NCBI GenBank assembly: GCA_048539495.1
Contig: JBLYPS010000005.1
Coordinates: 11,473 to 75,472 of the forward strand
Direction of reading: 5' to 3'
Source of the DNA: Dehalococcoidia bacterium
GTDB taxonomy: Bacteria > Chloroflexota > Dehalococcoidia > SZUA-161 > SpSt-899
DNA length: 64,000 nucleotides
Shown here: piece after piece, positions 23,430 through 64,000 of the stretch
How the letters are laid out: each line of letters opens with the position of its first letter
Position numbering within the stretch: position 1 is the stretch's first letter
The notes under the pieces: generated by a model
The model's input: only the letters and a program-made list of their open reading frames with translations
What the model was told of the DNA's origin: nothing
Databases searched by the model: none
Position numbers and translations under genes: made by a program

Positions 23430-23749
23430 CCTCAGTCCCACATGTCACTCAATGATGATATGCTAACATCGGTAGCGTAGAGCCTGACTTACTGTTTGGC
23501 ATATCTGTGTTAATGCCTGTGGTTCAGACTCCGCCCCTTCAGCTCGACAGGGATGAATCCCGCTCAAAGTAAAGCCGGGGTAAACAAAACAGCGGATTGT
23601 TGAGCGGTGCCATTCAACTTGAAAACCAGCCGCTCCTTTGACATAACGCGTCTGCTTGGTGGCTGACTGACCGCTTCGAGTTTGCCCACTAACCTTCAAC
23701 GAAAACCAAGTTTGGCAGTTATGAGCTGACGCCCTCTTGCTTGCTTAAG

Positions 23750-46689: not shown

Positions 46690-46809
46690 CATCACACCTC
46701 TCATGTGTCAACCAGGAATACACTCTATAATCCTACCATAAATATCTACGGATGAAAAGCAACTTGCCCGGGGTGAGTTCAACATCGCTGGATTCCGAAA
46801 CCAGTCCTT

Positions 46810-46922
46810 GCAATAATTCTTCCCTGACAAAAGCCCATCTGACATCTGCTGAATTCTCAAGCTTCTTGGGATAGGGGCGAATTTATTCGCCCTGTCGGGG
46901 GGGAGACTAAATCCTCCCCTAC
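46810..46922 (+). repeat. ~110-bp element ending in the REP-like hairpins, duplicated at 51153-51263
   Basis: Shared CCTGACAAAAGCCCATCTG.CATCTGC.GAATTCTCAAGCTTCTTGGG followed by the REP. Confidence 0.85.
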
Positions 46923-46989
46923 TCAATGTTATCACCCTCACTACACTGGGAAAGGCGTTTTCGACCTGAAACACCGGACGGGCGCAGAA

Positions 46990-47018
46990 CCTAACCTTTT
47001 GTCGTTTTCTTCGTTATA
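46990..47018 (+). promoter_or_regulatory. ECF-type promoter, class P1
   Basis: CCTAAC-N16-CGTTATA; the same motif and spacing occur at 48579 and 53271. Confidence 0.7.
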
Positions 47019-47058
47019 ATTAATACGGCAGCAATATTGAGCTGTCGGAGGTTGCTAG

Positions 47059-47619
47059 GTGCAAGATGAACAGGATATTGTCCACCGGGCGCAAAGGGGA
47101 GACAAAGAAGCTCTGGCGCAACTTTACGAGACCCATTTTGACAAGGTGTATCGTTACGTAAGGCTCAGAATAGGAAACCGGACAGAGGCGGAGGATATAA
47201 CCCAGCAGGTCTTTCTGAAGGCAGTTGGGTCTATTTCCACCTTCAAGTGGAAGGGCATACCCTTCGCTGCCTGGTTATTTCGTATTGCTCACAATGAGGT
47301 GGCCGACCATTGGAGAAAGGAAAGCAAGCAGGGAACGGTTCCTCTTAATGAATCGCTGACGAGAGCCACCGGTAGCGCCGGCAACCCGCATTTGGTGGCA
47401 GAACACCAGTCGGATATTGAGCAGCTAATGACAGCGACGAAGAGGCTGACTAAGGCACAGCGCGAGGTGATTTCTCTTCGCTTTGCCAGTGAGTTATCTA
47501 TCGCACAGGTAGCAAGTGTTATGGGTAAAAGTCAGGGGGCTGTGAAGGCATTGCAGCATAGTGCGATTGTCGCTTTGCGCGAAGCACTGTTAGTGGGAGA
47601 GGATAATGAAGAGAGGTAA
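47059..47619 (+). CDS. ECF sigma factor (sigma-1)
   Basis: AEDITQQVFLKA, AWLFRIAHN, LTKAQREVISLRF and SQGAVKALQHSA. Confidence 0.93.
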   Translation: MQDEQDIVHRAQRGDKEALAQLYETHFDKVYRYVRLRIGNRTEAEDITQQVFLKAVGSISTFKWKGIPFAAWLFRIAHNEVADHWRKESKQGTVPLNESLTRATGSAGNPHLVAEHQSDIEQLMTATKRLTKAQREVISLRFASELSIAQVASVMGKSQGAVKALQHSAIVALREALLVGEDNEER

Positions 47620-48541
47620 AGAAGACATCCTGGATGAATGTTTAGAACGACTGCTGGTCAACGGCCAGACTGTAGAACAATGTCTTCAGAGCTATCCGGA
47701 GCTCTCAACTGAGCTTGAGCCATTACTGAGGACAGTCCTGGCCGCAAGAAAGGCTTCCGTTATCCGACCTTGCCCGGAGTTCAAAGCCAGAGCGAGATAC
47801 CAGTTTCACCGGGCACTCGAGGAATTAAAGCCTAAGAGAAGGCTCTGGGCCTGGGACTGGCAGCCACGCTGGGTGACGGCGGTAGCCATAATCCTTGTCT
47901 TGGTGCTTGCTGGTGGCGGCACGATGATGGCAGCTCACGATAGCATGCCTGGCCATCTCCTCCATCCGGTGAGGTTGGCCACCGAGGAGGTGCGATTGGC
48001 ACTAACCCCTTCAGCCATAGGCAAAGCAGAACTGCACGCAGAGCTTGCAGACAAGAGGGTAGCAGAGATCATTTACCTGGCTAAGAGGGAAGATAAAGCA
48101 GCGAAAGTAGTGCAGGTCGTTCAGCGACTGGAGCATCACCTGACCACGATAACGGACCTAGCTTTAGCCGAAGCAGTGACGAAGATGGATCATTTTGAAG
48201 TTGAAGAAAAAGTCCAGGTGCCGGTTGAGCTAACAGCACCGGCGGTCCCTCCGCCTGCTCAAGTTGAGGGAGAAGCGGCAACACATCTTGGTGCGCGATA
48301 CAAAGTCGATGAAGCTGAACCACTCGCCCCGAACATTGTTCCAACCGCCAAGGAGATGGTTCTACTTGAGGCCGATAGGTGGGCTAGACTCAAAATAACC
48401 CTGCAATATCAGGCGGTCGATCACCTGGCTGACCTACGCAATCTACTGCCGGTAGCCCCGGAATCAGCAATACCCGCGCTCCTTGAGGCAATTGTCATAG
48501 CTGAAGCCAGCTATGAGCGAGCCCTTCGAGTTTTGGAGTAG
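47606..48541 (+). CDS. Membrane anti-sigma factor with a DUF5667-like domain
   Basis: LDECLERL...CLQSYPE N-terminus, one TM helix, and SMPGHLLHPVRLATEEVRLALT; overlaps the sigma stop. Confidence 0.8.
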   Translation: MKRGKEDILDECLERLLVNGQTVEQCLQSYPELSTELEPLLRTVLAARKASVIRPCPEFKARARYQFHRALEELKPKRRLWAWDWQPRWVTAVAIILVLVLAGGGTMMAAHDSMPGHLLHPVRLATEEVRLALTPSAIGKAELHAELADKRVAEIIYLAKREDKAAKVVQVVQRLEHHLTTITDLALAEAVTKMDHFEVEEKVQVPVELTAPAVPPPAQVEGEAATHLGARYKVDEAEPLAPNIVPTAKEMVLLEADRWARLKITLQYQAVDHLADLRNLLPVAPESAIPALLEAIVIAEASYERALRVLE

Positions 48542-48578
48542 GTAGAAGCCAGTTTCCCCCAAATACTCCCTGCTCTTT

Positions 48579-48607
48579 CCTAACTTTTTGGTGCTTTCTT
48601 CGTTATA
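48579..48607 (+). promoter_or_regulatory. ECF-type promoter, class P1
   Basis: CCTAAC-N16-CGTTATA upstream of protease copy A. Confidence 0.7.
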
Positions 48608-48732
48608 TATAGTAGAGGGAAAAATCCCGGTCACCAATAAGGGAGGTGAGAGCCAGTGACGATAACCTGAATCGAGTCAGAGTTCGTCCACACTCGCAAA
48701 AAAGTGGGCCAGAAATTAGGAGGATAACAAAG

Positions 48733-50371
48733 ATGAAGCTGACGAGAATAAAAGGAATCGCCCTACTTGTGGCTGCGGTATTGTTGCTGACGGGAGCAAT
48801 GGGTGCAATAGCAGCAGGTGGGGAAGAGAGGCGTGAGGAGTTCCGAATGGATGCTCGCTACTGGTGGGAAGCACCACCCTTAACCCCTTATGAGCGTGAG
48901 CAAGTAAGGGGGATAATGGTCTTGATACTTGACCGTTACTTTGGGATTGATGTTTCTACTATGAGCCCAGAGGAGTTCGAGGATTTGGGGAGATCGATAG
49001 GTCCCGAAAGAGAGAAGGAGGCACTTCGCCTCTTCGAGCATTACGCCAAGAAGAAGGGATTTCAAATGCCTGCAGGGATATTTGAAATGCCTGTGGGGAT
49101 CCCTGTTCCCGGGGAGTTCATACCCCCTGCTGAGGTAAGCTACTGGTGGGAATTGGTTGACCCTGAATATCGTGAGGCAAGGATTGCCTTTTTCCAGGAA
49201 ATGTTTCCAGAGGTCAATGTGAGGAATATGACGCCGGAGGAATTTGAACGTCTCCTTAACCCTCCTCCGCCTCCTCTCAGATTGCTGTCGATTGAGGAGA
49301 TGAAGGGGGAACCGGCTGTCATCGCGGTACATGGAAGAGCCCGTTCATACAGCACCCAGGCCGAGATACGAGAATGGCTCAATAGATTGCGTGAAGTGCA
49401 AGAACTCTTCGGTATTCTGAAGGGGCTAACGGGGCCATCGTTCCCTAGAATCACTGCTAGTGTTGATCCTGCCGGTTACGTCGAGGTATCGCTGACTATG
49501 TTCGAAGGCGAAGAAATGACAATTAATGATGCTCTAGCGTATGTGCCCGAAATTTATGCATTAATAGCTGAGAAGGCAGAGACACTCGACATCAAGGATG
49601 TTCCGGTCGTATTTCGCTTGATAAGAATAATGACAGGACTTTAGTACAGCGACCAGTCCAACCATTGAGGTGGCAATAGCTCCGCAGACAACCCTCCTGG
49701 GTTATGGCGCAAGATATCGCCCTATAATTGGCGGAATTCAGAAGCAGACACGTATTGCGTGGAGATTATCGACAATAGGCTTCGCAGTTCGGCGTCCAAT
49801 CCCGTGGTGGCCTGATGATCTAGACTATGTCATCACCGGACACCTTGGCCCTAGCAATACGCGAACGCCTGTAAATACGCAGATATACCAGCCAACAGTA
49901 GCGTCGGGAAACGAAGTCGGCAGGGTTGCAGCCGTTGCAAGCATGAATGGCTTTGCGGATGTAGCTCGGGTAGCCATTGACAATTGGCATGTCGCCCCAT
50001 ATATCCATATCGGAGGTGGGCACACGGTAGCCGTAAGGGCTTGGGGAGATCCAGTTGAGCACCAGTGGGTCAGTAAATCTGGAATCGCAACCGGCGTTAC
50101 TATTGGGCGGGTAATTAGAACAGGTGTTCCAGAGAACAACCTTGCCTTCGGCACTCTCCAAAACCAGGTTAGAGTAGCTTTTAGAATGACTCCCGGAGAC
50201 AGTGGCGCCCCCGTTTACAGACACAGGAACGGCTGGGCCGAGGGGGTGGAGATACTAGGGATCCTCTGGGGTTGGGCAGAGGATGGGGCAGGCAACTTTT
50301 TATACTCCATCTTTTCACCAACATCGGGAGTAAGAGCTGAACTACCAGGATGGCAACCGCACACGAAATAA
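48733..50371 (+). pseudogene. Secreted S1 protease paralog A, split by one extra base at ~49639-49642
   Basis: Signal peptide, YWWE repeats and DVPVVF prodomain; removing one T from CTTTAG joins it to RYRPIIGG...TGHLG...FADVARV...PGDSGAP. Confidence 0.85.
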
Positions 50372-50450
50372 TTTGCCGTCGTCCCCAATATGGAAAACCT
50401 TAGGGGAAATCCTGGGGCATAATACTTGAGGTTGTTTCAACGGTTCGGAA

Positions 50451-50515
50451 GACACAATACCTATTTCTTCCAAGGCGAGCGAGTTGCCCGCCGATGGTGA
50501 GATAGGTATTGTGTC
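50451..50515. repeat. 65-bp MITE-like element with 14-bp perfect terminal inverted repeats
   Basis: GACACAATACCTAT ... ATAGGTATTGTGTC. Confidence 0.65.
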
Positions 50516-50576
50516 CCGGGTTTCGATAACGTTATAATCAACACGGCAGCAATATTAAGCTGTCGGAGGTTGCCAG

Positions 50577-51137
50577 GTGCAAGATGAACAGGATATTGTC
50601 CACCGGGCGCAAAGGGGAGACAAAGAGGCTTTGGCGCAACTTTACGAGACCCATTTTGACAAGGTGTATCGTTACGTAAGGCTCAGAATAGGAAACCGGA
50701 CAGAGGCAGAGGACGTTACCCAGCAGGTCTTTCTGAAGGCAGTTGGGTTTATTTCCACCTTCAAGTGGAAGGGCATACCCTTCGCTGCCTGGTTATTTCG
50801 TATTGCTCACAATGAGGTGGCCGACCATTGGAGAAAGGAAAGCAAGCAGGGAACGGTTCCTCTTAACGAATCGCTGACGAGAGCCAACAGTAGCGCCGGC
50901 AACCCGCATTTGGTGGCAGAACACCAGTCGGATATTGAGCAGCTAATGACAGCGACGAAGAGGCTGACTAAGGCACAGCGCGAGGTGATTTCCCTTCGCT
51001 TTGCCAGTGAGTTGTCTATCGCACAGGTGGCAAGTGTTATGGGTAAAAGTCAGGGGGCGGTGAAGGCATTGCAGCATAGTGCGATTGTCGCTTTGCGCGA
51101 AGCACTGTTAGTGGGAGAGGATAATGAAGAGAGGTAA
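50577..51137 (+). CDS. ECF sigma factor (sigma-1', near-identical duplicate of 47059-47619)
   Basis: Same length with only a few substitutions (DI>DV, GS>GF, TG>NS); DNA 47012-47629 aligns with 50530-51147. Confidence 0.9.
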   Translation: MQDEQDIVHRAQRGDKEALAQLYETHFDKVYRYVRLRIGNRTEAEDVTQQVFLKAVGFISTFKWKGIPFAAWLFRIAHNEVADHWRKESKQGTVPLNESLTRANSSAGNPHLVAEHQSDIEQLMTATKRLTKAQREVISLRFASELSIAQVASVMGKSQGAVKALQHSAIVALREALLVGEDNEER

Positions 51138-51147
51138 AGAAAACATC
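51124..51147 (+). pseudogene. Anti-sigma 5' stub (MKRGKEN) cut off by the repeat element
   Basis: Matches MKRGKEDI at 47606, then switches to the 110-bp repeat. Confidence 0.75.
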
Positions 51148-51152
51148 TCCGT

Positions 51153-51263
51153 GCAGCAATTCTCTCCTGACAAAAGCCCATCTGGCATCTGCCGAATTCT
51201 CAAGCTTCTTGGGGTAGGGGCGAATTTATTCACTCTGTCGGGGGAGGCTAAAGCCTCCCCTAC
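51153..51263 (+). repeat. Second copy of the ~110-bp REP-containing element
   Basis: Aligns with 46810-46922; GTAG at 51214. Confidence 0.85.
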
Positions 51264-51299
51264 ACATAGAACTACTACCTCACTGCACGGGAAAGGCCG

Positions 51300-52613
51300 T
51301 TATTGCGCTGGGTCTGAGATTGAACCGCTCTTTGCCATCTCACGCATCCTGTCGATGAGCCGCTCGTTATAGGGCAGCAGCGCCATCGCGGTAGTCCTAG
51401 AATCGGAGGGCCCCAGCCTGTCCCCGTGAAAAGTAACATAGGCGGCGATTCCACCGTCGGGGTTCTGCATACTCCACAGCCTGGCCTCAATCTGAGGACA
51501 GTCGATTGGTATATCCAGAACCCTGCTGGCGTAGAGAATCAGGGCCAGCTTATGGGTGGCATAGATACCCTCTCTCCTGGTCGCGGCATCGTATATTCCC
51601 TTCCCATCCCACATCGAATATGCCTGATGGAAGTACTTCCTCGCCGCCTCTCCCTCGCCGCGCAGGTGTTGATTCAGCGATTGATAGATGAGCATGTCGC
51701 CGTAATCCTGCCAGGATAGCGGCATCGGCGAATCGTGGAATCGGGCGATAATCAGGAACTCGGCCTCCCTGGCCACCACAACCTCATTGGCGATGGAGAT
51801 ATCCCTCGGTATCGGCTCGCCAAAGAGAACCTCAAATAGCCGGCTCGGCCGCTGGGCGTAGCGCCGCAGTGTTTGCGCTATCTCTTGAGCCATCTCCGCA
51901 TCGAACGGCTGGAGGACATACGAGGCGATCAGGTTATCGGGATAGAGCCAGTATATCTGGTCATAACGATATTGCCGGCTACCCACCATCCTGAAGCCAG
52001 GTTCCTTGCTCTGAAAGATAAGCCCAACCTCGGGATTGAAGCTGGACCTGAGGTAATCCACCGCCCTGGCGATTTGCTGGTCGCGGTCCACTTTGTCGGC
52101 AAGTGCAACCTCCGCGCCTTTTACTGGTGCGGCGTCAAGTCCAGCCACCTCAACCAAGCGCTCGATTTGGGGCGGCTCCGATACTGGTGCTACTTCCATT
52201 TCCTCGTCCACGTCCTTCTCGATCAATCCCACCCCCACCGGGGCCGGTGCGATCATCCGCGGGACGATGAGGGCCAGGGCCACCACCAGAAAGATGGATA
52301 GTCCCGCCGCCAGCGCCGGGCGATGCCGCAACCATAGCGCCGAGAAGGCTCCGGTGATGACGGAGATCCAACCTGGTGACCTCTCCAGTTCTACTCTCTG
52401 CAGGCGAACAAGGAAACCGGGAGCCGGCTCGATGCTTTCCCAGTATCGGGGAACCTCTTGCCTCAAGCGGACATCCAGTTTGCTGACGCTCTCCAGTTCA
52501 TTAGCGCAATCCTGGCAACTCTGGAGATGCCCCTCAAAGGCATTGAGGTCATTGCCCCGGAAGGCGCCGGCTAAGTATTCTGCCAATCTCTCCCTGACCT
52601 GGTGACACTTCAT
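51300..52613 (-). CDS. Zinc-finger (zf-HC2/ZAS) membrane anti-sigma factor with a large extracytoplasmic domain
   Basis: MKCHQVRERL...HLQSCQDC (HxxxCxxC), TM helix ALAAGLSIFLVVALALIV, and a helical C-domain with LWSMQNPDGG; TAATG coupling to sigma-3. Confidence 0.85.
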   Translation of the reverse strand: MKCHQVRERLAEYLAGAFRGNDLNAFEGHLQSCQDCANELESVSKLDVRLRQEVPRYWESIEPAPGFLVRLQRVELERSPGWISVITGAFSALWLRHRPALAAGLSIFLVVALALIVPRMIAPAPVGVGLIEKDVDEEMEVAPVSEPPQIERLVEVAGLDAAPVKGAEVALADKVDRDQQIARAVDYLRSSFNPEVGLIFQSKEPGFRMVGSRQYRYDQIYWLYPDNLIASYVLQPFDAEMAQEIAQTLRRYAQRPSRLFEVLFGEPIPRDISIANEVVVAREAEFLIIARFHDSPMPLSWQDYGDMLIYQSLNQHLRGEGEAARKYFHQAYSMWDGKGIYDAATRREGIYATHKLALILYASRVLDIPIDCPQIEARLWSMQNPDGGIAAYVTFHGDRLGPSDSRTTAMALLPYNERLIDRMREMAKSGSISDPAQ

Positions 52614-53182
52614 TATCTATCACCCCCCTCTAAATATAGACGTAACAAGCGGTATGATTCGCTCAGTATCCTTCTTACGGTTCCCACAGGACGGTTCAAG
52701 GTACGGGCTATTTCATCGGTGGAGGCATCCTCGGAGTAGTGCAGCATGATGACCAGGCGGTGCAGCTCCGGCAGCCTGGTGATCGCTTCATGAAGGTCGA
52801 GGGCAAAATCCTGTCTGCTCTCCGCAGGATTATGAGACATCGCCGTTTTGTGTATGGAGATGGTGGCTTCGACAGCCTTGCGCTCTCGCTGCCTCTTGCG
52901 CAGGAGGTCATAGGCCCTGGTGGTAACTATGCGGCCGAGCCAGGAGCCAAAGGAGCCCTCCTTCTCCAGTTTCTTGATAGACTTATAGGCGGTGATGAAG
53001 GCTTCCTGCACCGTGTCCTCGGCGTCGCTCTGGTTCCGGAGGATGGCGAAGGCAATACGGTAGGCTCGCGGTGCATGAGTCTCCATCAGTTGCCCGAAAG
53101 CCTCCCTGTCGCCTGCCCTGGCCCGGCGAATCAAGGTTATTTCTTCATGGAGGAAGTTCTCGTTCAATAGATCTGCCTTCAA
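52613..53182 (-). CDS. ECF sigma factor (sigma-3)
   Basis: DAEDTVQEAFITAY, SFGSWLGRIV, LPELHRLVIMLHY and PVGTVRR. Confidence 0.92.
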   Translation of the reverse strand: MKADLLNENFLHEEITLIRRARAGDREAFGQLMETHAPRAYRIAFAILRNQSDAEDTVQEAFITAYKSIKKLEKEGSFGSWLGRIVTTRAYDLLRKRQRERKAVEATISIHKTAMSHNPAESRQDFALDLHEAITRLPELHRLVIMLHYSEDASTDEIARTLNRPVGTVRRILSESYRLLRLYLEGGDR

Positions 53183-53233
53183 GAAACCCTTCTGCTGAGA
53201 TTATACGCCAGTGCGGAAAGCAATCGCAAGCGG

Positions 53234-53299
53234 GTGAGCAGAACCGGTCGTTCCAAGCGTCTTAAATATACCTAACTTTTTGGCGTCTGCTTCGTTATA
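53234..53299 (+). promoter_or_regulatory. Tandem ECF-type promoters P2 then P1
   Basis: GTGAGCA-N17-CGTC (53234-53261) followed by CCTAAC-N16-CGTTATA (53271-53299). Confidence 0.7.
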
Positions 53300-53441
53300 T
53301 ATTATAGAGGGGCAAAAATGTGGATAAGGTATGGGGGCAAACGGGGAAGTGGGGGGTGTGCTTTCAGGAGGTGATAACGATGTAAGAATGAGATCGAGTA
53401 GGGGGCGACTCCAGGGAAGAAGAAAAAGGAGGGAAAAGAAA

Positions 53442-54419
53442 ATGAAAAAATGGTGGTTAGTGATCAGTCTGGTAGTCGTGATTGCCATGCTCGGTGCGGG
53501 GGGGCTTGTGGCTTTCCATGGTAATCAGCAGGTGGCGGATTATGGCTACGGTGCTGAGGTAGATGGTGATGTCACCGCTGAGGGGGATACTAATCTGGCC
53601 GCTGAGGAACTAACACTAACAGCACTAACATCTGATGTCTACATGCCTAACCCCGAGCACACGAAAGCCTATGAAAAACTGTTTGAGGCTATACCTTATA
53701 TGAACGCCCAAGGTATACCTGTGGTAGATTTTTGCCGACGCCACTGTGGGACAGACCCCGAGACGGGCGCCACTCAGATCATGGTTATCTTGGTAGGGCT
53801 CAGAGAGGTGAGGGACGAGTATAAAGAGGCCATAAAAGCGATAGTGGAGGGCGTTGATGGCATAGAATTCGACTTCTTCCAGGCCGAATTTACCAGGGAG
53901 GAAATTTGGGGCTGGCAAGATAAGATTTGGGGAACATTCTCACGTCCCTGGGACCTTCCGCCGGGCATAATAGAGGTTCCTGTATCCGGGACAAGCTCAT
54001 CATGGAGGGATCAGATAATAGGGGTTCAACTTGCTGGGGAGGTAAGGCCAGAGTATATCGAGGCCATTAAAGCCGTAGTTGGCAACGAAGCTCCGCTCAA
54101 CTTTCAGGGCGGAGGCTCCGTGCGTCACCACACCCGCTATTGGCAAGAAAAGTGGGACCCTGATGAGATGATGGAAAAACAAGTGATGTTGCATGTCTTT
54201 GCGCTGCTCTTTCCCGACGTTGAGTTATCGAGTATGCGCATCGGGGAAGTTGAGGAGTTCATTAAGGGATTAAGCGTCGAGGAAGCAACAGAGCTTATTC
54301 GCAAGCTCCTTGATTATGCCCTTGAGCGAGGGTTAGTAACGCCGTTAGTAACCCCGGAGGAGCGGCAGGAATTAGAAGAAGAAATGCTGCAACATTGGCT
54401 GGAATGGAGGCAAGAGTAG
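53442..54419 (+). CDS. Secreted or membrane-anchored protein with two prodomain-like modules and a C-terminal RYW domain; no protease domain
   Basis: N-terminal hydrophobic helix; repeats EYKEAIKAIV and EYIEAIKAVV; the C-terminal RYWQE...LFPDVELSSM...E aligns by eye with RYWWE...YFGIDVSTMSPEEFE. Confidence 0.75.
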   Translation: MKKWWLVISLVVVIAMLGAGGLVAFHGNQQVADYGYGAEVDGDVTAEGDTNLAAEELTLTALTSDVYMPNPEHTKAYEKLFEAIPYMNAQGIPVVDFCRRHCGTDPETGATQIMVILVGLREVRDEYKEAIKAIVEGVDGIEFDFFQAEFTREEIWGWQDKIWGTFSRPWDLPPGIIEVPVSGTSSSWRDQIIGVQLAGEVRPEYIEAIKAVVGNEAPLNFQGGGSVRHHTRYWQEKWDPDEMMEKQVMLHVFALLFPDVELSSMRIGEVEEFIKGLSVEEATELIRKLLDYALERGLVTPLVTPEERQELEEEMLQHWLEWRQE

Positions 54420-54585
54420 ATGGAATCGTTGTCTCTTTCGTTATATATTATAGAGGGGCAAATCATGGTCGCCACGAAGGGAGGTGAGCGCCAGTGATGA
54501 TAAGCTAAATGTGGTCAGGTGAGCTGGGAGTTCGTCCACACTCACAAAAAGTGGGCAAAAACATAAGAAACGGAGGGTAACAAAA

Positions 54586-56338
54586 ATGAAACTGAAGGGA
54601 ATAAAAGGGATCGCCTTGCTTGTGACTGCGCTGACCTTGCTGGTAGCACCACTGGCTGCAATAGCAGGAGAGGGTATTAATGGGGAATTCAGACCGACGA
54701 CAGGGGAAGGATGGGAATGGGACGCTCGCTATTGGTGGGAAGTGCCGCCTTTAACTGCTTATGAGCGTGAGCAGATGAGGGAGATAATGACCCTGATATT
54801 TGACCGTTACTTCGGAATTGATATCAGCAGGATGAGCCCACAAGAATTTGAGGACGTCGGGACATCGATAGGTCTTGAAGGAGAGAAGAAGGCACTTCGC
54901 CTCTTTGAGCATTACGCCAGGGAGAGGGGATTTCAAATGCCTGCAGGGATATTTGAAATGCCTGGGGAGAGACCCATTCCCGGGGAGTTTATACTCCCGG
55001 TTGATGTAACCTACTGGTGGGAACTGATATACCCTCAATACCGCGAGAAGGAGATTGCCATAATGCTACAGCTTCATCCAGAGCTCAATCGTTATGATCT
55101 GCTGAATATGACGCTGGAGGAGTTTCAACGTCTCCTTAACCCACCTCCGCCTCCTTTGAGATTAAGATTGGTCACGAGAGAAGAGATAGAAGAGTTGGTC
55201 GCGAGAAACCCCTATGTCATTGCAGTATACGGAAAGCTCCGAGCGTATGATACCCAGGCTGAGATAAAAGAGTGGCTCGAGAGATTGGAGGAAGTGCAGG
55301 ACCTTGCGCTCATCCTTATTCTTGAACTAACCACGGCACCACTCACTTCCCTTGGCGTTGGTGCGGGTTACATCTCAGTAGGGTTGTGTATGGACACAGT
55401 GACCGCTGATGAGGCTCTTCTACGGTATGTGCCTGAAGTTCATGCCGTGATATCTGAGGAGGCGGAGACATTCGGCATCTACGATGTTCCCGTAAAATTT
55501 TCGCTTGGCGGACGCATACGATTCGATCTAGGGTACGATATAGGGTGCATAGCGGTACATGCGGATGTTGCAACTCAATCGGGGGCAGTTAGCTCCGCTC
55601 CCGGTTGGTGGCCCTTCCCAGGTCGCATCCCAACTGATCCGAGAGACCACCCCCATGCTCTCATAATTGGTGGGCTTCGCCATGCGATACGCGGGGAGAC
55701 AGGATGGGCCACAACAAGGCTTCGTAGTGCAAAGGCCAATCCCCTTCTGGTGGGATGATGAGGACTATCTCATCACTGGACACTTTGGTCCTGGCAGATT
55801 GCCCGGTACAACCCCTGTAAATCGGGTCGTGTACCAACCAGGGCATCCGCACAACGCCGGGCAGGTTGCAGCAGTCGCACCGTTGGGTGGTTTTGCGGAT
55901 GTAGCCCGAGTGGCAATTGCCGACAGGCGTGTCAACCCCCCATATGTCCATCTGGGGGATCCCGGAATGGATGGCAAAAAGCCAGTTCTCGGCTGGCTGG
56001 ATGATGTACACCGGCAACACGAGCTCTGGATGTCTGGGGCAAGGAGTGGCCTACAATTTGGGCGCGTACATTGGACAAGGAGAGACATAGTTTGCCCCGT
56101 CCGAGGAACTTTTCTCCGGGATCAGGTCTGGGCAGATTATCATGCCGATCCTGGAGATAGTGGCGCTCCCATTCTCCACCCTATGTCAAGGATCGTTGGC
56201 GGCGAGATAACGCGAGGAGTGGCAGTATTAGGAATCCACTCCGGTAGAAAAGTGTACCAAGGTAGGGTATATCGCTTCTTTTCCCCAATATCTGGGATAA
56301 GAACTGAACTGCCAGGATGGTATCCATACACGAGATGA
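54586..56338 (+). pseudogene. Secreted S1 protease paralog B, split by one extra A at ~55716
   Basis: ACAACAAGGCTTC versus ACAACAGGCTTC (TTGF, as in paralog E); triad motifs TGHFG, FADVARV and PGDSGAP are intact. Confidence 0.85.
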
Positions 56339-56419
56339 TTTGCCGCTGTCCTTGACCGAGGGGCATTAATAATTGACCCCAGAGCTATATACGCTGACGC
56401 AGAAAAACGAGCGCAAGTG

Positions 56420-56447
56420 ATGAGCAGAATTATGTGTTCCAGACGTC
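56420..56447 (+). promoter_or_regulatory. ECF-type promoter, class P2
   Basis: ATGAGCA-N17-CGTC upstream of paralog C. Confidence 0.6.
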
Positions 56448-56585
56448 TCACATATAGAGGCCAACATACCAGTGCCCGCCTCGCTTTTGATGGAAGGGGG
56501 CGATGGTTATGTGAAAACGAAACTATAACGGGGAGCTCGTCCACACTCGCAAAAAAGTGGATAAATACAAGGGAGAGTAACAACA

Positions 56586-57638
56586 ATGAGACCGAAGGGA
56601 ATAAAAGGGATCGCTTTACTCGTCGCTGCGGTATTGCTGCTGGTGATTCCAATGGTTGCAATACCGGCAGCAGGTGGGGAAGAGAGGGGGGAGGGGTTCC
56701 GAGTGGATGCTCGCTATTGGTGGGAAGACCCGTATTTGACTGCTTATGAGCGTGAGCAGGTAAAGGAGATAATGGTTTTGGTATTTGACCGTTACTTCGG
56801 GACCGATGTCTCTGCTATGAGCCCTGAGGAATTCGAGGAGGTAGTGTTATCGGTAGGACCTGAACCTGAGGAGATATTCCGTCTGTTTACGCAATATGCG
56901 GAGAAAAGAGGGTTTGAAATCCCTGGGGAAATACCTGAGGAAGTACCTGACCCCCCTGTGGAGGACCGATGCGCGTATATTGCTCGTATAATGGCTGCCG
57001 ATGTAAGGTATCGGGAGTTATCGCCTGCCGATGTAACCTATTGGTGGGAACTGGTGGGGACTGAATGCCGTGAGGCAACAGTTGCGGCGGTGCGGGAACT
57101 GTTCCCCGAGATAGATGTGGTAGATGTGGTGAGTATGTCACCTGATGAACTGAATCTCCTGCTTAATCCCCCTCCTCCTCCACTTAGGCTGTTATCCATT
57201 GAGGAGAGAAGGGAGAAGCGCCCAACCACCATTATTGCGATATACGGAAGGCCCCGCACATATGAAAGTGAGGTTGAGGTGCGCGAGTGGCTTGGCAGAT
57301 TGCGAGGCATAGAGGAGAAAATCTTTCCCTGGGCTTACGATAACACAGGCAAGGTAATCATGTTTGGAGTTTGTCACGCCGGCTACCTCAGTGTGGGGTT
57401 GAATTTAGATAGGCTGACGAGAGATGAGGCTTTGGCATTTGCCGCCGAAGCATATCCGATACTAGCTGAAATGGCAAAGGCGGCGGGTGTCGACGATGTT
57501 CCGGTCGTATTCGAGCTCTGGGCAATAAGGACTACTACATTACGGCATGAAAGAATCCGTCCCATAGACGGCGGGATTCGGATGAGCAGGCAACTGGCTG
57601 ATTACTGCCTTCTCACCAATGACTGGGGTAACAAATGA
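56586..57638 (+). pseudogene. Paralog C: prodomain only, protease domain replaced by unrelated sequence
   Basis: Homology ends at RHERIRPIDGGIRM (~57585); 57590-57868 is unrelated sequence. Confidence 0.8.
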
Positions 57639-57916
57639 GCTGGATCCCTTCATTCCCTATACAATTTTCTGTCCGTAGGAGAATTGAGATGCTGGCTCCT
57701 CGGTGAGTGTAGAGGGGCCAGTATCTTTCTTTTGCAATGAAAATAAGGCAGAGAGCTGGAGGAATTGCCACAAAACAACGCAGTTAAAACCTTTGAGAAG
57801 ACCAAGCTGGTAGTTTGGGGTACAACTAACTCTGAGCGGGATTGCCTGTTCCACATGTCTTGTATACAACACTCGCAAAAAGCGGGCAAGAAACTAAGAA
57901 ACGGAGGGTAACAAGA

Positions 57917-59662
57917 ATGAGACTGAAGGGAATAAAAGGGATCGATTTACTCGTCGCTGCGGCATTGTTGCTGATAGCATTAATGGGTGCAATAGCAGCA
58001 GCGGGTGGGGAAGAGAGACGTATTGATGTGGAGGACTTTAATTGGGATGCTCGCTATTGGTGGGAGGCGCCACCTTTAACCCCTTATGAGCGTCAACAGG
58101 TAAAGGAGATAATGGTCTTGATACTTGACCGTTACTTCGGAACTGATGTCTCTGCAATGAGCCCAGCAGAATTCGAGGAGTTGGGGGAGTCGCTAGGCCC
58201 CGAAAGAGAGAAGGAGGTGCTTCGCCTCTTTGAGCGTTACGCCGAGAAGAGGGGATTTGAAATCCCTCCAGGGCTATTTGAAATGCCTGTGGAGGTACCC
58301 GCTCCCGATGAGCTCATACCCCCTGCTGGGGCACGCTACTGGTGGGAACTGGTGGACCCTGAATATCGCGAGAATGCAATTGCCTTCGCCAAGAAGCACA
58401 TTCCAGAGATGCTTCGCTACTACTGGCAGCTCGCCACGGAGGAAGGGTTTGAAGTGCCGCCGGGCATGCCTCGTCCTGAAGAAGTCGATGTGATGAGATT
58501 GACACCGGAGGAGTATGCCCTTATTCTTAACCCACCTCTGCCTCCCCTCAGATTGCTGACGATAGAGGGGATAATAGAGGAGATGAAGGGAAGACCGTGG
58601 TTCGTTGCGGCATACGGAAGAATCCCGTCATACAATACCCAGACCGAGATACGAGAATGGCTCGACAGATTGCGTGAACTGAAAGACCTTATCGTGCCCC
58701 CCCCAGGGACACCATGGATACTACCACCGGCTACAGGCTTCATTGCGATTTCTAGTGACGGTTACCTTGACGTGGGGCTGAATAGGGACAAAATGGACAA
58801 ATTGAGAATCAATGAGGAGGCTCTGGCGCTTGCATTCGAAATTTATGCGCTGATATCTGAGAAGGCAGAGACGCTTGGCATGCAGGATGTTCCGGTCCTA
58901 TTTACCCTCACCAGAACTGGTGGCTTGGATGGTATTACAGCTCAACCCCATCAGGTGATAGATCCGGAGATAACCGCCGTGCAGCAAGCGGGCTACCGCG
59001 AAAGATATCGCCCCATAATTGGTGGGATTTTGATGACAATTGATGCATGGGGAGCGACAGTAGGCTTCGCAGTTCGAGATCCAATCCCGTGGTGGCCTGA
59101 TGATTTAGACTATGTCATCACCGGACACCTTGGTCCTCCCTTTGGCTCGCCAAGCCCTGTAAATACGCAGGTATACCAGCCAACAGTAGGACCCGGAAAC
59201 GAAGCCGGCAGGGTTGAAGATGTTGCAAGCATGAATGGCTTTGCGGATGTAGCCCGGGTGGCGATTCACAATTCGGATGTCGACCCATATATCCATGTAG
59301 GAGATGGCGCAAAGGTGCCGGTAAAGAGTTGGCGAGATCCACATATGCACGAGTGGGTCATAATGTCCGGGGTCGTAAGTGGCTACACTCAAGGGAGGGT
59401 ACTTCAGACAGGTGTTACATTACCTCAGGGCCACAACCCCGCCTTCGGCGCTCTCCGAAACCAGTTTATAGCAGCTTATGCACGCTCTGGAGGAGACAGT
59501 GGTGCCCCCATTTTCAGCTTCCTTGCGGGCTGGGAAGTAGAGATATTCGGAATCCATGTGGGTTCGATTGAACACCACGGTGTCATACGCCCCTACTTTT
59601 CACCAACATCGGGAGTAAGAGTTGAACTACCAGGATGGTATCCGTACACGAAATCCCCTTGA
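57917..59662 (+). CDS. Secreted S1 (chymotrypsin/alpha-lytic-like) protease paralog D, intact
   Basis: 581 aa: signal peptide, YWWE repeats, DVPVLF prodomain, TGHLG, FADVARV and GGDSGAP. Confidence 0.88.
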   Translation: MRLKGIKGIDLLVAAALLLIALMGAIAAAGGEERRIDVEDFNWDARYWWEAPPLTPYERQQVKEIMVLILDRYFGTDVSAMSPAEFEELGESLGPEREKEVLRLFERYAEKRGFEIPPGLFEMPVEVPAPDELIPPAGARYWWELVDPEYRENAIAFAKKHIPEMLRYYWQLATEEGFEVPPGMPRPEEVDVMRLTPEEYALILNPPLPPLRLLTIEGIIEEMKGRPWFVAAYGRIPSYNTQTEIREWLDRLRELKDLIVPPPGTPWILPPATGFIAISSDGYLDVGLNRDKMDKLRINEEALALAFEIYALISEKAETLGMQDVPVLFTLTRTGGLDGITAQPHQVIDPEITAVQQAGYRERYRPIIGGILMTIDAWGATVGFAVRDPIPWWPDDLDYVITGHLGPPFGSPSPVNTQVYQPTVGPGNEAGRVEDVASMNGFADVARVAIHNSDVDPYIHVGDGAKVPVKSWRDPHMHEWVIMSGVVSGYTQGRVLQTGVTLPQGHNPAFGALRNQFIAAYARSGGDSGAPIFSFLAGWEVEIFGIHVGSIEHHGVIRPYFSPTSGVRVELPGWYPYTKSP

Positions 59663-59719
59663 TGGGGTTGATGGGGAAACCTAAGGGGAATCTAAATCTA
59701 GGAGATAAATATTAGTGCC

Positions 59720-59798
59720 CCGCAAAAATCTTTGAATTTTTGCGGCGACCCCAGAGTCATTCTCCCCAAAAAGTCTTCGACTTTTTGGGGAGAACTAC
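59720..59798. repeat. Double hairpin between array genes (terminator- or REP-like); also at 61775-61853 and 63778-63856
   Basis: CCGCAAAAATCTTTGAATTTTTGCGG and TTCTCCCCAAAAAGTCTTCGACTTTTTGGGGAGAACTAC. Confidence 0.85.
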
Positions 59799-59830
59799 AT
59801 ACGTGTTGACGCAGAAAGCAAGCGCAAGTG

Positions 59831-59857
59831 GTGAGCAGAATCGTCTATCCCAGCGTC
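59831..59857 (+). promoter_or_regulatory. ECF-type promoter, class P2
   Basis: GTGAGCA-N16-CGTC upstream of paralog E. Confidence 0.6.
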
Positions 59858-60005
59858 TTATATATAGAGGCCAAAATTTAATGGCTGCGGCTGCCTCGCC
59901 CTTGATCGAAGGAGGTGATGGTTATGTGATAAGGAAACTATAACCGGGAGTTCGTCCATACTCGCAAAAAAGTGGGCAAAAAATAAGAAACGGAGGGTAA
60001 CAAGA

Positions 60006-61719
60006 ATGAAGCGGAAGGGAATAAGAACCATCGTCTTGCTTGGGGTTGTGGCATTGTTGCTGATAGCATTAATGGGTGCAATAGCAGCAGCGGGTGGGGA
60101 AGAGAGACGTATTGATGTGGAGGACTTTAATTGGGATGCTCGCTATTGGTGGGAGGCGCCACCTTTAACCCCTTATGAGCGTGAGCAGGTAAAGGAGATA
60201 ATGGTCTTCATATTTGACCGTTACTTCGGGATCGATGTCTCTACCATGAGCCCAGAGGAGTTCGAGGACTTGGGGAGGTCGATAGGCCCCGGAAGAGAGA
60301 AGGATGTACTTCTCCTCTTCGAGTATTACACCGAGAAGAGGGGATTTCAAATGCCTCCGGGGATATTCGAAATGCCTGTGGACATATCTGTTCTCGAGGA
60401 GTTCATGCCCCCTGCTGAGGTAAGCTACTGGTGGGAACTGGTAGACCCTGAATACCGTGAGGCAAGGATTGCCTTTTTCCAGGAAATATTCGGGGAAAGG
60501 TTTGAAAGGTATCCCGAAGAATTCCCATTCGCAGAAGTGAACGTGAGAAATATGACGCCGGAGGAGTTTGAACGTGCCCTTAGTCCGCCTCTGCCCCCTC
60601 TCAGATTGCTAACGATCGAGGAGATAAAGAGGGAAGGTCCGGCTATCATCGCGGTATACGGAAGACCCCGATCATACACTGCCCAGACCGAGATACGAGA
60701 ATGGCTCGATAGATTGCGTGAAGTGCAGGAACTCTTCATACAGCAAGTGTTTCCGGAGACGCCAGCACCTACGCGACTATTCCCCATAAACCAGATTGGT
60801 ATTCGCTACGGTTTCCTGGTCGTGGGACTGTGTAAGGAAGAATTAACAATCAATGAGGCTCTAGCTCTTGCATCCCACATTTATGCGCTGGTATCTGAGA
60901 AGGCAGATAGACTCGGTGTCCAGGATGTTCCGGTCGTATTTAGCCTCATCCGGAGGGCTGTGCTGGATATAGCTGAACCCCATCAGGTCGCACCTCCGCA
61001 GACAACACGCCCCCCATGGGTGCCCCCCGTGGGTCCAGCCTTCGTACTACCTAAGATTTCGTCCTATACCGGGTGCGGTTTTGATGGCGACACGTTATCT
61101 GCCGACGGGAGCTGCAACGACAGGCTTCGCGGTTATACGGCGAATCGCCTGGTGGCCTGATGATCTAGACTATGTCGTCACCGGACACCTTGGTCCTCGC
61201 CGTACGCGAACGCCTATAGGTATGCCGATATACCAGCCAAGGGTAGCCCCGGGAAACGAAGCCGGCACGGTTGAAGCTGTTGGAAGGATGCATGGATTTG
61301 CCGATGTAGCCCGGGTGGGGATTGCTAATCGCGATGTCGTCCCATATATCCATATAGGAGGTGGCTCCAGGATACCGGTAAGGAGTTGGCGAGATGCACA
61401 TTGGCCTGAGTGGGTCAGCAAGTCCGGGGCCGCAACTGGTGACACTCAAGGGAGGGTAGTTACCAGGCAACCTATTAAGGTATGGAACCCCGCCTTAGGC
61501 TCGCTCCAAAACCAGGTTTTAGCAGCTTACGCATCCGCTGGGGGAGATAGTGGCTCCCCCGTTTTCTTATTCGGTCCCACCGGGGGAGTATACGCAGTGA
61601 TAGTGGGAATCCACTGGGGTCGGGCACCTTGCCCGATAACAGGCATCGATAGGGCTACGTTTTCACCAATATCGGGGATAATGACCGAACTATCCGGATG
61701 GGAACCACACACGAAATAA
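60006..61719 (+). pseudogene. Secreted S1 protease paralog E, split by one extra base in the linker (~61005-61030, C6 runs)
   Basis: The prodomain frame drifts off; the +1 frame reads YYLRFRPIPG...TGHLG...FADVARV...GGDSGSP. Confidence 0.85.
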
Positions 61720-61904
61720 TTTGCTGCCGCCCCCAGTATGGAAAACCTCAGGGAATCCAGGGACATAATATGCCCCGCAAGAATCCAAAGATTTTTGCGG
61801 CGACCCCAGAGTCATTCTCCCCAAAAAGGCCTCGGCTTTTTGGGGAGAACTATAGAAACCCTAGTAGCGGGATTATATGCTGATGCAGGAAGCAAGCGCA
61901 AGTG

Positions 61905-61932
61905 ATGAGCAGAATTATCTGTTCCAGACGTC
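61905..61932 (+). promoter_or_regulatory. ECF-type promoter, class P2
   Basis: ATGAGCA-N17-CGTC upstream of paralog F. Confidence 0.6.
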
Positions 61933-62071
61933 TCATATATATAGAGGCCAACATACCAGTGCCCGCCTCGCCCTTGATCGAAGGAGGTGATGGTTATGTG
62001 ATAAGGAAACTATAACCGGGAGTTCGTCCATACTCGCAAAAAAGTGGGCAAAAAAAAGGAGGGTAACAAGA

Positions 62072-63721
62072 ATGAGGCTCAAGGGAATAAAAGGCATCGC
62101 CTTACTTATAGCTGCGGTATTGTTGCTGGTGATTCCAATGGCCGCAATACCAGCAGCGGCTGGAGAAGAGAGGCATGAGGAGTTCCGATGGGATGCTCGC
62201 TACTGGTGGGAAGCACTACCGCTTTCTCCCCATTATCAGCAGCAAGTGAGGGAGATAATGGTCTCGGTATTTGACCGTTACTTCGAGACTGATATCTCCG
62301 CTATGAGTCCACAGAAACTCGAGGAGTTGTGGAATGCGATAGATTGTGAAAGCCGAGAAAAGGTGCTGTGTCTCTCTGCACAATATGCCACAACGAAGGG
62401 GTTTCAAATACCCGGAATGCCTACTCCGAGGGAGGAGTTCATACCCCCTGCTGGTGCAACCTACTGGTGGGAGTTTGTGGACCCTGAACTGCGTGAGGGC
62501 GCAATTGTTGGGGCAAAGGAAGACATTCCAGAGGCGCTTCGCTCCGTCTGGGAGCTTACTGAGTGGAAGGGAGTTGAACTGCCCATACCTCGTCCTGAGA
62601 ACCTTGATGTGATGAGATTAACACCAGAGGAATATAATCTCATCCTTACCCCTTCATTCCCTCTTGGAAGGATAGGAGTTGAGGAGTGGATAAATAGATA
62701 TTTTCCGGGTGTTGATATCATTGCAACATTCGGGAGAACTCGCGCATATAGCAATCCAGCAAAATGGTTCGATAGATTGCGTGAAGTAACCGAGCTCACG
62801 TCTCCACTTTTCCTTCCCTTGATGAAAAGTAAATCTGGAATTTGGACGAAGGGGATTGACGCTTCCGGTTATATTAGTGTGTGGTTGGATTGCAGGAAGT
62901 TGACAAGGTGCGAGGCGGTGGCGATTGCTCCCAAGATTTATGCCATGATAGCTACAAAAGCAGAGATGGTTGGTGTTCAGGATGTTCCGGTCGTTATTGT
63001 CCTCAGGTGGATTGAAGTCCACCTAGCTGGATCGAAAGACCCGCGCGGCTACCTAGGGACACCCCTACCCCTTGACCAGAAATTCCGCCCCATACCCGGT
63101 GGAGCCCAAGTGAAGGGGAGATCATGGCACGCGACAGCGGGCTTCCCGGTTCAGAGGCCAATCGTGTTTTGGTGGGATGACAAAGACCTTACGACCACCG
63201 GACATCTTGGGGGCCCCCCTGTCCCTATAAACACGCGGGTGTACCAGCCAACGGAACTGGGGGGAAATAAAGTCGGCACGGTTGCCGGTGTTGCAAGCCG
63301 TGGAGGATTTGCAGATGTTGCGCGCGTAGCCACCCCCGATGGGAATGTCATCCCATACATTCGGGTAATGACCTTCTGGACATCCCCGGTAACAGGTTCG
63401 CGAGATCCAGCGCTGCATGAGTGGTCTGGCAAATTTGGGAGGACCACCGGTCGTACCTCCGGCCGCATACTTAGTGTGAATCGAGATACGTACAATCCTG
63501 CATTTGGCGTTCTCCAAGACCAAGTTTGGACAACTATTAGAGTAGAGCCCGGAGACAGTGGTTCTCCCCTTTTCATAAGCGCCGCCGGGGGTGGAGTGGC
63601 AGTAACAGGAATCGCCTGGGGTTTCTTATATTGCCCTCACATTGGCCGGATCGGCCTCTTTTCACCGGTATCGGGAGTAATGACTGAACTGCCAGGATGG
63701 AGACCATTCACGAGGAGATAG
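62072..63721 (+). CDS. Secreted S1 protease paralog F, intact
   Basis: 549 aa: signal peptide, YWWE repeats, DVPVVI, TGHLG, FADVARV and PGDSGSP. Confidence 0.88.
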   Translation: MRLKGIKGIALLIAAVLLLVIPMAAIPAAAGEERHEEFRWDARYWWEALPLSPHYQQQVREIMVSVFDRYFETDISAMSPQKLEELWNAIDCESREKVLCLSAQYATTKGFQIPGMPTPREEFIPPAGATYWWEFVDPELREGAIVGAKEDIPEALRSVWELTEWKGVELPIPRPENLDVMRLTPEEYNLILTPSFPLGRIGVEEWINRYFPGVDIIATFGRTRAYSNPAKWFDRLREVTELTSPLFLPLMKSKSGIWTKGIDASGYISVWLDCRKLTRCEAVAIAPKIYAMIATKAEMVGVQDVPVVIVLRWIEVHLAGSKDPRGYLGTPLPLDQKFRPIPGGAQVKGRSWHATAGFPVQRPIVFWWDDKDLTTTGHLGGPPVPINTRVYQPTELGGNKVGTVAGVASRGGFADVARVATPDGNVIPYIRVMTFWTSPVTGSRDPALHEWSGKFGRTTGRTSGRILSVNRDTYNPAFGVLQDQVWTTIRVEPGDSGSPLFISAAGGGVAVTGIAWGFLYCPHIGRIGLFSPVSGVMTELPGWRPFTRR

Positions 63722-63888
63722 CTTGCCGCTGTCCCTAATGGAGAAACCTCGGGGAGATCCAGCGACATGATAGTGCCCCGCAAAAATCTTTGAATTTTTG
63801 CGGCGACCCCAGAGTCATTCTCCCCAAAAAGTCTTCGACTTTTTGGGGAGAACTACATACGTGTTGACGCAGAAAGCAAGCGCAAGTG

Positions 63889-64000
63889 GTGAGCAGAATG
63901 CTCAGTTCATGCGTCTTATTATATAGAGGCCAAAAATTAATGGCTGCCTCGCCCTTGATCGAAGGAGGTGATGGTTATGTGATAAGGAAACTATAACCGG
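63889..64000 (+). promoter_or_regulatory. P2 promoter and conserved leader of a probable seventh array gene beyond the window
   Basis: GTGAGCA-N16-CGTC, then GCCTCGCCCTTGATCGAAGGAGGTGATGGTTATGTGATAAGGAAACTATAACCGG, identical to the leaders of E and F. Confidence 0.7.

Follow-up and report, generated by a model that had tools for sequence, protein, structure and literature searches.

How the expression of a tandem family of membrane-anchored or secreted proteins may be controlled is the question raised by the 46.9-64 kb stretch of DNA from an uncultured groundwater Dehalococcoidia bacterium. This stretch is the last part of the 64-kb window (the whole stretch of DNA that was analysed) and is an island of tandemly duplicated genes, most of them paralogs of a likely protease family (A to F and a further copy), together with a gene starting at 53442 (the 53442 gene), the genes of three extracytoplasmic function (ECF) sigma factors (sigma-1, sigma-2, and sigma-3), and those of two anti-sigma factors. 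An earlier reading of the sequence alone (hereafter, the original prediction) had proposed that two distinct classes of ECF-type promoters, P1 and P2, wire the locus, with sigma-1 reading P1, including one copy before its own gene, and sigma-3 reading P2. To our knowledge, gene regulation in Dehalococcoidia is almost unstudied because few members have been cultured.

Two promoter-like motif classes in the island

The P1 motif, CCTAAC-N16-CGTTATA, occurs exactly as predicted before sigma-1, paralog A, and the 53442 gene, and the P2 motif, TGAGCA-N16/17-CGTC, before the 53442 gene, paralogs C, E, and F, and the next paralog beyond F (Table 1). By chance, 0.01 P1 sites and 0.30 P2 sites would be expected in shuffled sequences, none of 100 shuffles reaching three of the former or five of the latter, although these statistics overstate the independence of the copies, which are paralogous within the window. 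All eight sites lie on the + strand, 40-170 nucleotides (nt) 5' of + strand genes, and neither motif was found elsewhere in the 64-kb window. Written in full, the P1 form is CCTAAC TTTTTG..CGTCT... CGTTATATA and the P2 form is GTGAGCAGAAY-N12/13-CGTCT. The hallmark boxes of ECF promoters are AAC and CGT (PMC8103513); P1 has both, and P2 has CGTC but carries TGAGC(A) where AAC is expected. Paralog B, described earlier as lacking the P1 -35 box, indeed retains the spacer and the CGTTATA box, and comparison with an intact copy in another genome (L002, position 5221) indicates a small deletion. A scan of the window with position matrices built from foreign loci only, leaving the window sequences out, returned the same eight sites and nothing else equally strong, and added one degenerate P2 before paralog D, overlooked in the original prediction. 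All statements on the sequence in the original prediction were thus confirmed. A sigma70 reading of the two motifs was rejected, as neither class accommodates an acceptably spaced hexamer pair whose -10 box ends in the invariant T.

Conservation of the motifs across genomes

The real support for the two classes comes from their conservation across genomes. The comparison loci were L001, L002, L003 (protease proteins 39-42% identical to D), L173/L174, and L175/L176. In the window, L001, L002, L003, and L173, 11 P1 and 11 P2 copies were found in total, and L175 and L176 contain more P2 copies besides these. The upstream flanks are unrelated among the copies, and conservation sets in exactly at CCTAAC (P1) or GTGAGCAGAA (P2), includes the spacers (TTTTTG.CGTCT in P1 and GTCGTTCC in P2), and continues for about 20 nt past the -10 box (TATATTATAGAGGGGCAAA). 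The tandem P2-P1 pair located before the 53442 gene recurs at L001 9797/9832, the orthologues of this gene in L001 and L002 being 66-69% identical, and the degenerate P2 variant of paralog D is kept before the D-like genes of L003 and L175. The two promoter-like classes with ECF geometry are hence real and conserved across genomes.

The comparison loci show further features. L003 has three tandem P1-plus-leader units (1215, 1348, and 1480; period of 132-133 nt) before one protease gene. The D protein of L175 (GCA_018725405) is 100% identical to that of the window over the aligned 96% of the query. Compared with the window at 54.4-57.9 kb, L175/L176 have a protease gene, a sigma-1-like gene (sigma-1'), an anti-sigma gene, and a protease gene 5' of C, not the 53442 gene and B. 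Loose contig ends in sequencing runs (at 56487) fit this alternative junction of the L175 type. The difference reflects either rearranged versions of the island in the population or one assembly being chimeric across repeats.

P1 and the BldN-like sigma factors

All three sigma factors contain only Pfam Sigma70_r2 plus r4/r4_2 within 186-189 amino acids (aa) and pass the cut-off of the ECF superfamily model TIGR02937, identifying them as ECF members. The assignment to ECF groups called for by the original prediction was achieved in part: the best match of sigma-1 is BldN, at a score below the family cut-off, and sigma-3 reached no equivalog in NCBIfam. Sigma-1 scores 189.9 bits against the BldN family model TIGR02952, by a wide margin its best NCBIfam match, the curated equivalog cut-off being 206.45. 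Its best relative of solved structure is BldN (6DXO, E 1.7e-34), and a protein 70% identical to it carries the NCBI name 'BldN family'. The recognition helices are also alike, GAVKALQHSAI in sigma-1 and GAIKTLQYRAV in BldN.

The published motif of BldN is CGTAAC-N16-CGTTGA (PMC2375139), and that of ShbA is CGTAAC-N16-CGATGA (PMC12019637). P1 has the TAAC-N16-CGTT core in common with the BldN motif, with a T-rich tract directly after AAC. As sigma-1 is BldN-like and P1 shares the core of the BldN motif, the predicted reading of P1 by sigma-1 appears well supported and is the best-supported step of the wiring. An additional TAAC-N16-CGTT site at 23698 on the - strand was rejected as a candidate; it has neither the T-tract nor a gene context, and 0.74 such sites are expected by chance.

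The sigma-1 gene has a near-copy, sigma-2 (97.8% identical at the protein level), whose orphan status was overlooked in the original prediction. Self-BLAST aligns 47012-47629 with 50530-51147 at 96.9% identity; the duplication starts exactly at CGTTATAAT (47012/50530) and stops 24 nt into the anti-sigma frame. From these bounds, it appears that the ancestral housekeeping-type promoter was left to sigma-2, which lacks an anti-sigma gene, and that sigma-1 has gained the P1 -35 box and spacer and retains its anti-sigma gene. The sigma-1' genes of L002, L003, and L175, 64-71% identical to sigma-1 and 81-83% among themselves, are preceded by a sigma70-type TTG(T/C)(G/A)(T/C)-N17-TATAAT without P1. 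The proposed autoregulation of sigma-1 would therefore be particular to the genome examined here, where P1 lies upstream of sigma-1, and not extend to its relatives, which use the sigma70-type promoter. It is reasonable to infer that sigma-2 would provide a basal supply, with the P1-driven operon of sigma-1 and its anti-sigma factor providing feedback.

The frames of sigma and anti-sigma genes overlap for sigma-1 (anti-sigma with DUF5667) and sigma-3 (anti-sigma with zf-HC2), predicting co-transcription; sigma-2 has no such overlap. The pair of a sigma gene and a DUF5667 anti-sigma gene is also present in L002, L003, and L175; a literature search found no paper naming DUF5667 together with sigma. 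The segment 5' of sigma-1 (46805-46956) is repeated directly after sigma-2 (51148-51297) with 84% identity, and both copies hold a terminator-like hairpin (46861 and 51204). The layout of sigma-1 and sigma-2 suggests tandem duplication followed by deletion of the second anti-sigma gene.

P2 and sigma-3

The sigma-3 family is widespread in Dehalococcoidia, with members 55-98% identical and an invariant region 4.2 helix, GT(V/I)RR(I/V)LSESYxLLRLYL. The canonical ECF recognition helix is GTV(K/R)(S/T)R(I/L)xRxR; in the alignment with SigW (GTVKTRIHRGR) and SigE (GTVRSRIHRGR), the sigma-3 helix, GTVRRILSESY, is without the canonical arginines, which makes an unusual -35 specificity plausible. The adjoining anti-sigma-3 scores 26.5 bits against Pfam zf-HC2 (cut-off 22.2) and has HLQSCQDC in its translation, which places it among the zinc-binding anti-sigma (ZAS) factors. 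In scans of genome and metagenome contigs for relatives of sigma-3, generic ECF patterns dominated, and none above 39% identity was found among the matches listed.

The sigma70-like promoter predicted for sigma-3, TTGCGA-N18-TATAAT, was located at 53229-53200 on the - strand, with 10 of 12 consensus positions matched, back-to-back with P2. TTGCRY-N17/18-TATAAT precedes all eight sigma-3 orthologues for which DNA was available; with a housekeeping-type promoter conserved to this extent, classical autoregulation is unlikely. The back-to-back arrangement, with about 5 nt between the -35 boxes, is found in the window, L001, and L173/L174; in the last of these, sigma-3 is 77% identical and P2 precedes a gene for an 84-aa protein. 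At C, E, F, and the next gene, a remnant of the divergent sigma70 promoter of sigma-3 stands just upstream of P2, indicating that the whole bidirectional module between sigma-3 and the 53442 gene was copied along with the genes. The remnants (TTGCGC-N17/18-TAT(A/G)TA, - strand sense) are at 56385-56420, 59795-59831, 61870-61905, and 63853-63889. Facing backward, they could give rise to antisense RNA reaching the 3' end of the paralog before them.

A further P2-like site was found inside the sigma-3 gene, about 25 nt 5' of the start codon of anti-sigma-3. The window contains four TGAGC-N18-CGTCT sequences, where chance would give 0.08; three of them are P2 sites, and the fourth is this intragenic one, which is present in all eight sigma-3 orthologues. 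Of the codon columns, 62 have an invariant amino acid that is degenerate; in just six of these do the eight sequences agree on the codon, and four of the six (AGC, GAA, TAC, and CGT) fall within the intragenic site, for which, as a pre-specified stretch, a permutation test of the synonymous constraint gives p = 0.002. A sigma-dependent promoter for an anti-sigma gene alone has a precedent in rsbN (PMC6101532), and the intragenic site is a candidate sigma-3-dependent promoter for the anti-sigma-3 gene.

The helices of sigma-1, sigma-1', and the sigma factor of L002 are near-identical, so that recognition of both CCTAAC and TGAGCAGAA by a BldN-type sigma factor is unlikely, leaving sigma-3 as the best candidate reader of P2, with a slightly better than even chance of being so. 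The proposal that sigma-3 reads P2 is accordingly plausible in view of the divergent adjacency, the intragenic site, and the atypical helix, and is set back by the P2 copies that follow BldN-type operons in four loci. We speculate, as a tentative and rather doubtful extension, that the sigma-3 family is an ECF module with negative feedback only, the sigma gene itself always being expressed from a housekeeping-type promoter and the intragenic one driving the anti-sigma gene alone, and that in this lineage the P2 module, back-to-back with the sigma-3 promoter, was copied before successive protease paralogs.

Evidence against the wiring and rival explanations

Several observations weigh against the assignment of P1 to sigma-1 and sigma-2 and of P2 to sigma-3, or against the use of the motifs as such promoters. 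The copies within the window are paralogous duplicates, and relatives lack P1 before their sigma gene. The synonymous constraint at the intragenic site, seen in eight related sequences, reaches only p = 0.067 if any stretch of the sigma-3 gene is allowed, and the site shares its nucleotides with the strongly conserved codons for the recognition helix (ILSESY = ..CTGAGCGAATCATAC..). No P2-driven genes adjoin the sigma-3 orthologues that are more distant (61-74% identical), and in L001 P2 has been kept despite the decay of both sigma-3 and anti-sigma-3. Four metatranscriptome runs contain the locus as contigs, whose ends are repeat boundaries seen also in DNA runs, and some of which cross the intergenic regions; these contigs are uninformative on 5' ends. 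The pieces remaining in L001 (8675-9740) are sigma residues 5-74 and anti-sigma residues 25-202 and 308-423, with the tandem P2-P1 pair intact.

The position of P2 in other loci bears on another reader, a BldN-type sigma factor of the adjoining operon (sigma-1', possibly also sigma-1 and sigma-2) or BldN-type paralogs dividing P1 and P2 among themselves. In L002, L003, L175, and L176, short contigs without sigma-3, no more than about 15-50 nt separate the stop codon of the DUF5667 anti-sigma gene from the start of P2 or a close variant, which is followed by a serpin gene in L002 and L003 and by a protease gene in L175 and L176; moreover, L175 has four P2-type sites and no P1 in the 9 kb around sigma-1'. 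However, the helices of the BldN-type factors (GAVK[AS]LQH[SG]AI) are almost the same and resemble that of BldN, which reads GTAAC, one specificity cannot serve both -35 sequences, and L002 and L003 each have three P1 copies beside the BldN-type sigma gene. We consider this assignment improbable. The serpin genes (PF00079; L002 8984-10264 and L003 7057-8355) stand directly after the BldN-type sigma/anti-sigma operon.

It is likewise improbable that P2 depends on, or is recognised by, some factor out of view, either an unlinked sigma factor or a transcription factor acting on the inverted repeat GAAY-N5-GTTC, the adjacency of sigma-3 being incidental. The P2 spacer is unusually conserved and holds GAAC-N5-GTTC, P2 outlasts the decay of sigma-3 in L001, and most sigma-3 orthologues are surrounded by housekeeping genes, P2 targets being absent from their vicinity, but the only TGAGC-N18-CGTCT of the window outside P2 lies within sigma-3 and is kept in all orthologues, and the divergent layout of sigma-3 and P2 recurs in L173/L174.

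That the motifs are simply conserved 5' ends of cassettes spread by duplication and gene conversion, having no ECF role and leaving expression to housekeeping-type promoters or read-through, would agree with the longer duplicated blocks around the window copies, the tandem units of L003 spaced by 132 nt, and the conservation extending into the leader, but is very unlikely in view of the 11 copies, from genomes with ~40% identical proteins, whose upstream flanks are unrelated and whose conservation sets in precisely at the -35 box, the agreement in geometry and bases with the motif of a characterised relative (BldN), and the presence of only one strong sigma70 hexamer pair in the region, that of the sigma-3 promoter itself.

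Organization of the island

The features discussed above are listed in Table 1 together with the genes of the island.

Table 1 Promoter-like sites and genes in the 46.9-64 kb stretch (positions in the window)
Feature	Position	Strand	Remarks
P1 before sigma-1	46990-47018	+	CCTAAC-N16-CGTTATAAT; hybrid, P1 -35 box and spacer joined to the CGTTATAAT box common with sigma-2
sigma-1, BldN-like ECF sigma	47059-47619	+	Pfam Sigma70_r2 + r4; 186 aa
anti-sigma-1, membrane protein with DUF5667	47606-48541	+	Pfam PF18915, 42.8 bits; start overlaps sigma-1 end
P1 before paralog A	48579-48607	+	Exact match
Paralog A, N-terminal domain and S1-like protease domain	48733-50371	+	Split; open reading frames (ORFs) 48646-49644 and 49670-50371
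sigma70-like promoter of sigma-2	50509-50538	+	TTGTGT-N18-TATAAT; no P1 -35 box; homologous to sigma-1' promoters
sigma-2	50577-51137	+	Near-copy of sigma-1, without anti-sigma gene
anti-sigma-3, ZAS-type	51300-52613	-	Zinc-binding N-terminus H-x3-C-x2-C, transmembrane segment, ~300-aa outer domain
sigma-3, ECF sigma	52613-53182	-	Pfam r2 + r4; recognition helix GTVRRILSESYRLL; frame overlaps anti-sigma-3
P2-like site in sigma-3 3' end	52638-52665	-	TGAGCGAAT-N14-CGTCT; ~25 nt 5' of anti-sigma-3 start codon
P2, first of tandem P2-P1 pair before 53442 gene	53235-53261	+	
P1, second of tandem pair before 53442 gene	53271-53299	+	Exact match
53442 gene, membrane-anchored protein	53442-54419	+	No protease domain; no Pfam match
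P1 -10 remnant CGTTATA before paralog B	54439-54445	+	-35 box deleted
Paralog B	54586-56338	+	Split by frameshift near 55716
P2 before paralog C	56421-56447	+	
Paralog C	56586-57638	+	No protease domain
Degenerate P2 before paralog D	57833-57866	+	TGAGCGGGAT-N12-ATGTCT (CGTCT to TGTCT)
Paralog D	57917-59662	+	
P2 before paralog E	59832-59857	+	
Paralog E	60006-61719	+	Split
P2 before paralog F	61906-61932	+	
Paralog F	62072-63721	+	Intact, 549 aa
P2 before next paralog beyond F	63890-63915	+	
Further paralog after F	Downstream of P2 at 63890	+	Continues past window end

The paralog family is confined to this lineage: a search gave 24 clusters, some of which are named 'S1 family peptidase' by NCBI. 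The paralogs carry GDSGAP, with TGH and ADVAR conserved, and a low-confidence model (predicted local distance difference test, pLDDT, 56) matches alpha-lytic protease and Streptomyces griseus proteases A/B with target template modelling (TM) scores of 0.55-0.63. From these features and the model, the paralogs are likely proteases with an alpha-lytic-protease-like S1 domain; their C-terminal domain had no sequence match in Pfam or PDB. Several of the paralogs are split or truncated in this assembly. In paralog A, the two frames separated by a 1-nt frameshift near 49640 are joined by one base fewer in contigs of four runs, and one base fewer at 55716 in the contig of one run rejoins both halves of paralog B; the frameshifts in A and B are either strain polymorphisms or assembly errors. 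An insertion at 61268, seen in contigs of other runs from the same groundwater studies, would not repair paralog E.

A leader of ~110 nt is common to the P1- and P2-driven paralogs in several genomes (in the window, for example, 48610-48732, 54450-54585, 56455-56585, 59865-60005, and 61940-62071). It consists of a strong ribosome-binding site, followed by a mini-ORF of 3-4 codons (GGAGGTGATGGTTATGTGA) and a block, GAGTTCGTCCACACTCGCAAAAAAGTGGGC, with a 6-bp hairpin. The leader had no match in Rfam, and a structured leader RNA was rejected, the alignment giving this single hairpin and no compensatory changes. Long, near-perfect hairpins (TTCTCCCCAAAAAG-loop-CTTTTTGGGGAGAA) follow D, E, and F (~59760-59794, ~61815-61849, and ~63817-63851), just 5' of the next P2 module; they have no T tail and were for this reason missed by a simple terminator scan, and may be terminators or recombination joints. 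In L002 (~3400-3480), a sequence resembling a transfer RNA (..GGGCTCATTACCCGAAGG..TTCGAATCC..) has a protease gene on one side and the 53442 orthologue on the other.

Discussion

The results described above point to a wiring in which each gene of the island would have its own promoter and the common ~110-nt leader. P1, with TAAC-N16-CGTT, would belong to the canonical ECF promoters of the BldN/ShbA kind and be read by sigma-1 and the orphan sigma-2, both of which the DUF5667 anti-sigma factor would restrain. P2 would represent a second ECF type, in which the -35 box is not AAC, and would most likely be read by sigma-3, which in turn would be made from its conserved housekeeping-type promoter and restrained by the zinc-binding anti-sigma factor. 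The sole apparent self-target of sigma-3 would be the intragenic P2-like promoter, expressing the anti-sigma gene alone and thereby exerting negative feedback. Taken as a whole, this wiring, deduced from motif and protein comparisons, seems to us moderately probable. The wiring originally predicted is supported in part; that two signals induce different protease subsets, as it further proposed, is an inference only.

The locus offers two sharply defined candidate ECF promoter motifs together with their candidate cognate sigma factors. If the proposed assignments are true, P1 would define a regulon for a BldN-type sigma factor outside Actinobacteria, comprising a lineage-specific alpha-lytic-protease-like family and, in relatives, a serpin. 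The protease paralogs would likewise be placed under a sigma factor with a non-AAC -35 code, and a promoter code would be defined for an ECF family with an unusual recognition helix. The serpin behind P2 would mean that the putative regulon of the proteases also includes an inhibitor of proteases. The island would also show promoter modules spreading with tandem gene duplication.

Comparison with known systems

The putative sigma-1 system is worth comparing with BldN (ECF121) and its anti-sigma factor RsbN of Streptomyces. The two are alike in the sequence and helix of the sigma factor, the TAAC-N16-CGTT core of P1, a membrane anti-sigma factor encoded beside the sigma gene, and a putative regulon formed by a family of paralogous exported proteins, the targets of BldN being multigene families of secreted proteins (chaplins and rodlins). 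They differ in that sigma-1 (186 aa) falls under the family cut-off, its anti-sigma factor contains DUF5667, the presumed targets are protease-domain proteins, and the host belongs to Dehalococcoidia. ShbA/SigD (ECF40) is among the next-best NCBIfam matches to sigma-1, and the -35 box of ShbA is GTAAC with the same spacing; however, the -10 box is CGAT, in place of CGTT in P1, and the score of sigma-1 is low (111 vs 209 bits).

For sigma-3, the best matches of solved structure are SigW and Mycobacterium tuberculosis SigE. Like the ECF factors partnered with ZAS proteins (SigW/RsiW, SigE/RseA, and SigR/RsrA), it consists of regions 2 and 4 only and is encoded by a gene overlapping that of an HxxxCxxC anti-sigma factor. 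Unlike them, sigma-3 has a helix (RRILSESY) without the usual arginines, a candidate -35 box of TGAGC, not AAC, and a housekeeping-type promoter before all eight orthologues, with no classical positive autoregulation. A non-AAC -35 box is reportedly found also for ECF41 (TGTCACA-N16-CGTC; Wecke et al. 2012), and P2 has a similar outline, TGxxCA-N16/17-CGTC; sigma-3 differs in having no fused C-terminal domain and in having a separate anti-sigma factor. Altogether, the system would be an ordinary case of ECF sigma/anti-sigma signalling acting on a local regulon, P1 being of the BldN/ECF121 type and P2 of an ECF type with a -35 box other than AAC, as is known for other ECF groups, and the current view of ECF signalling would not be overturned by these readings even if they are true.

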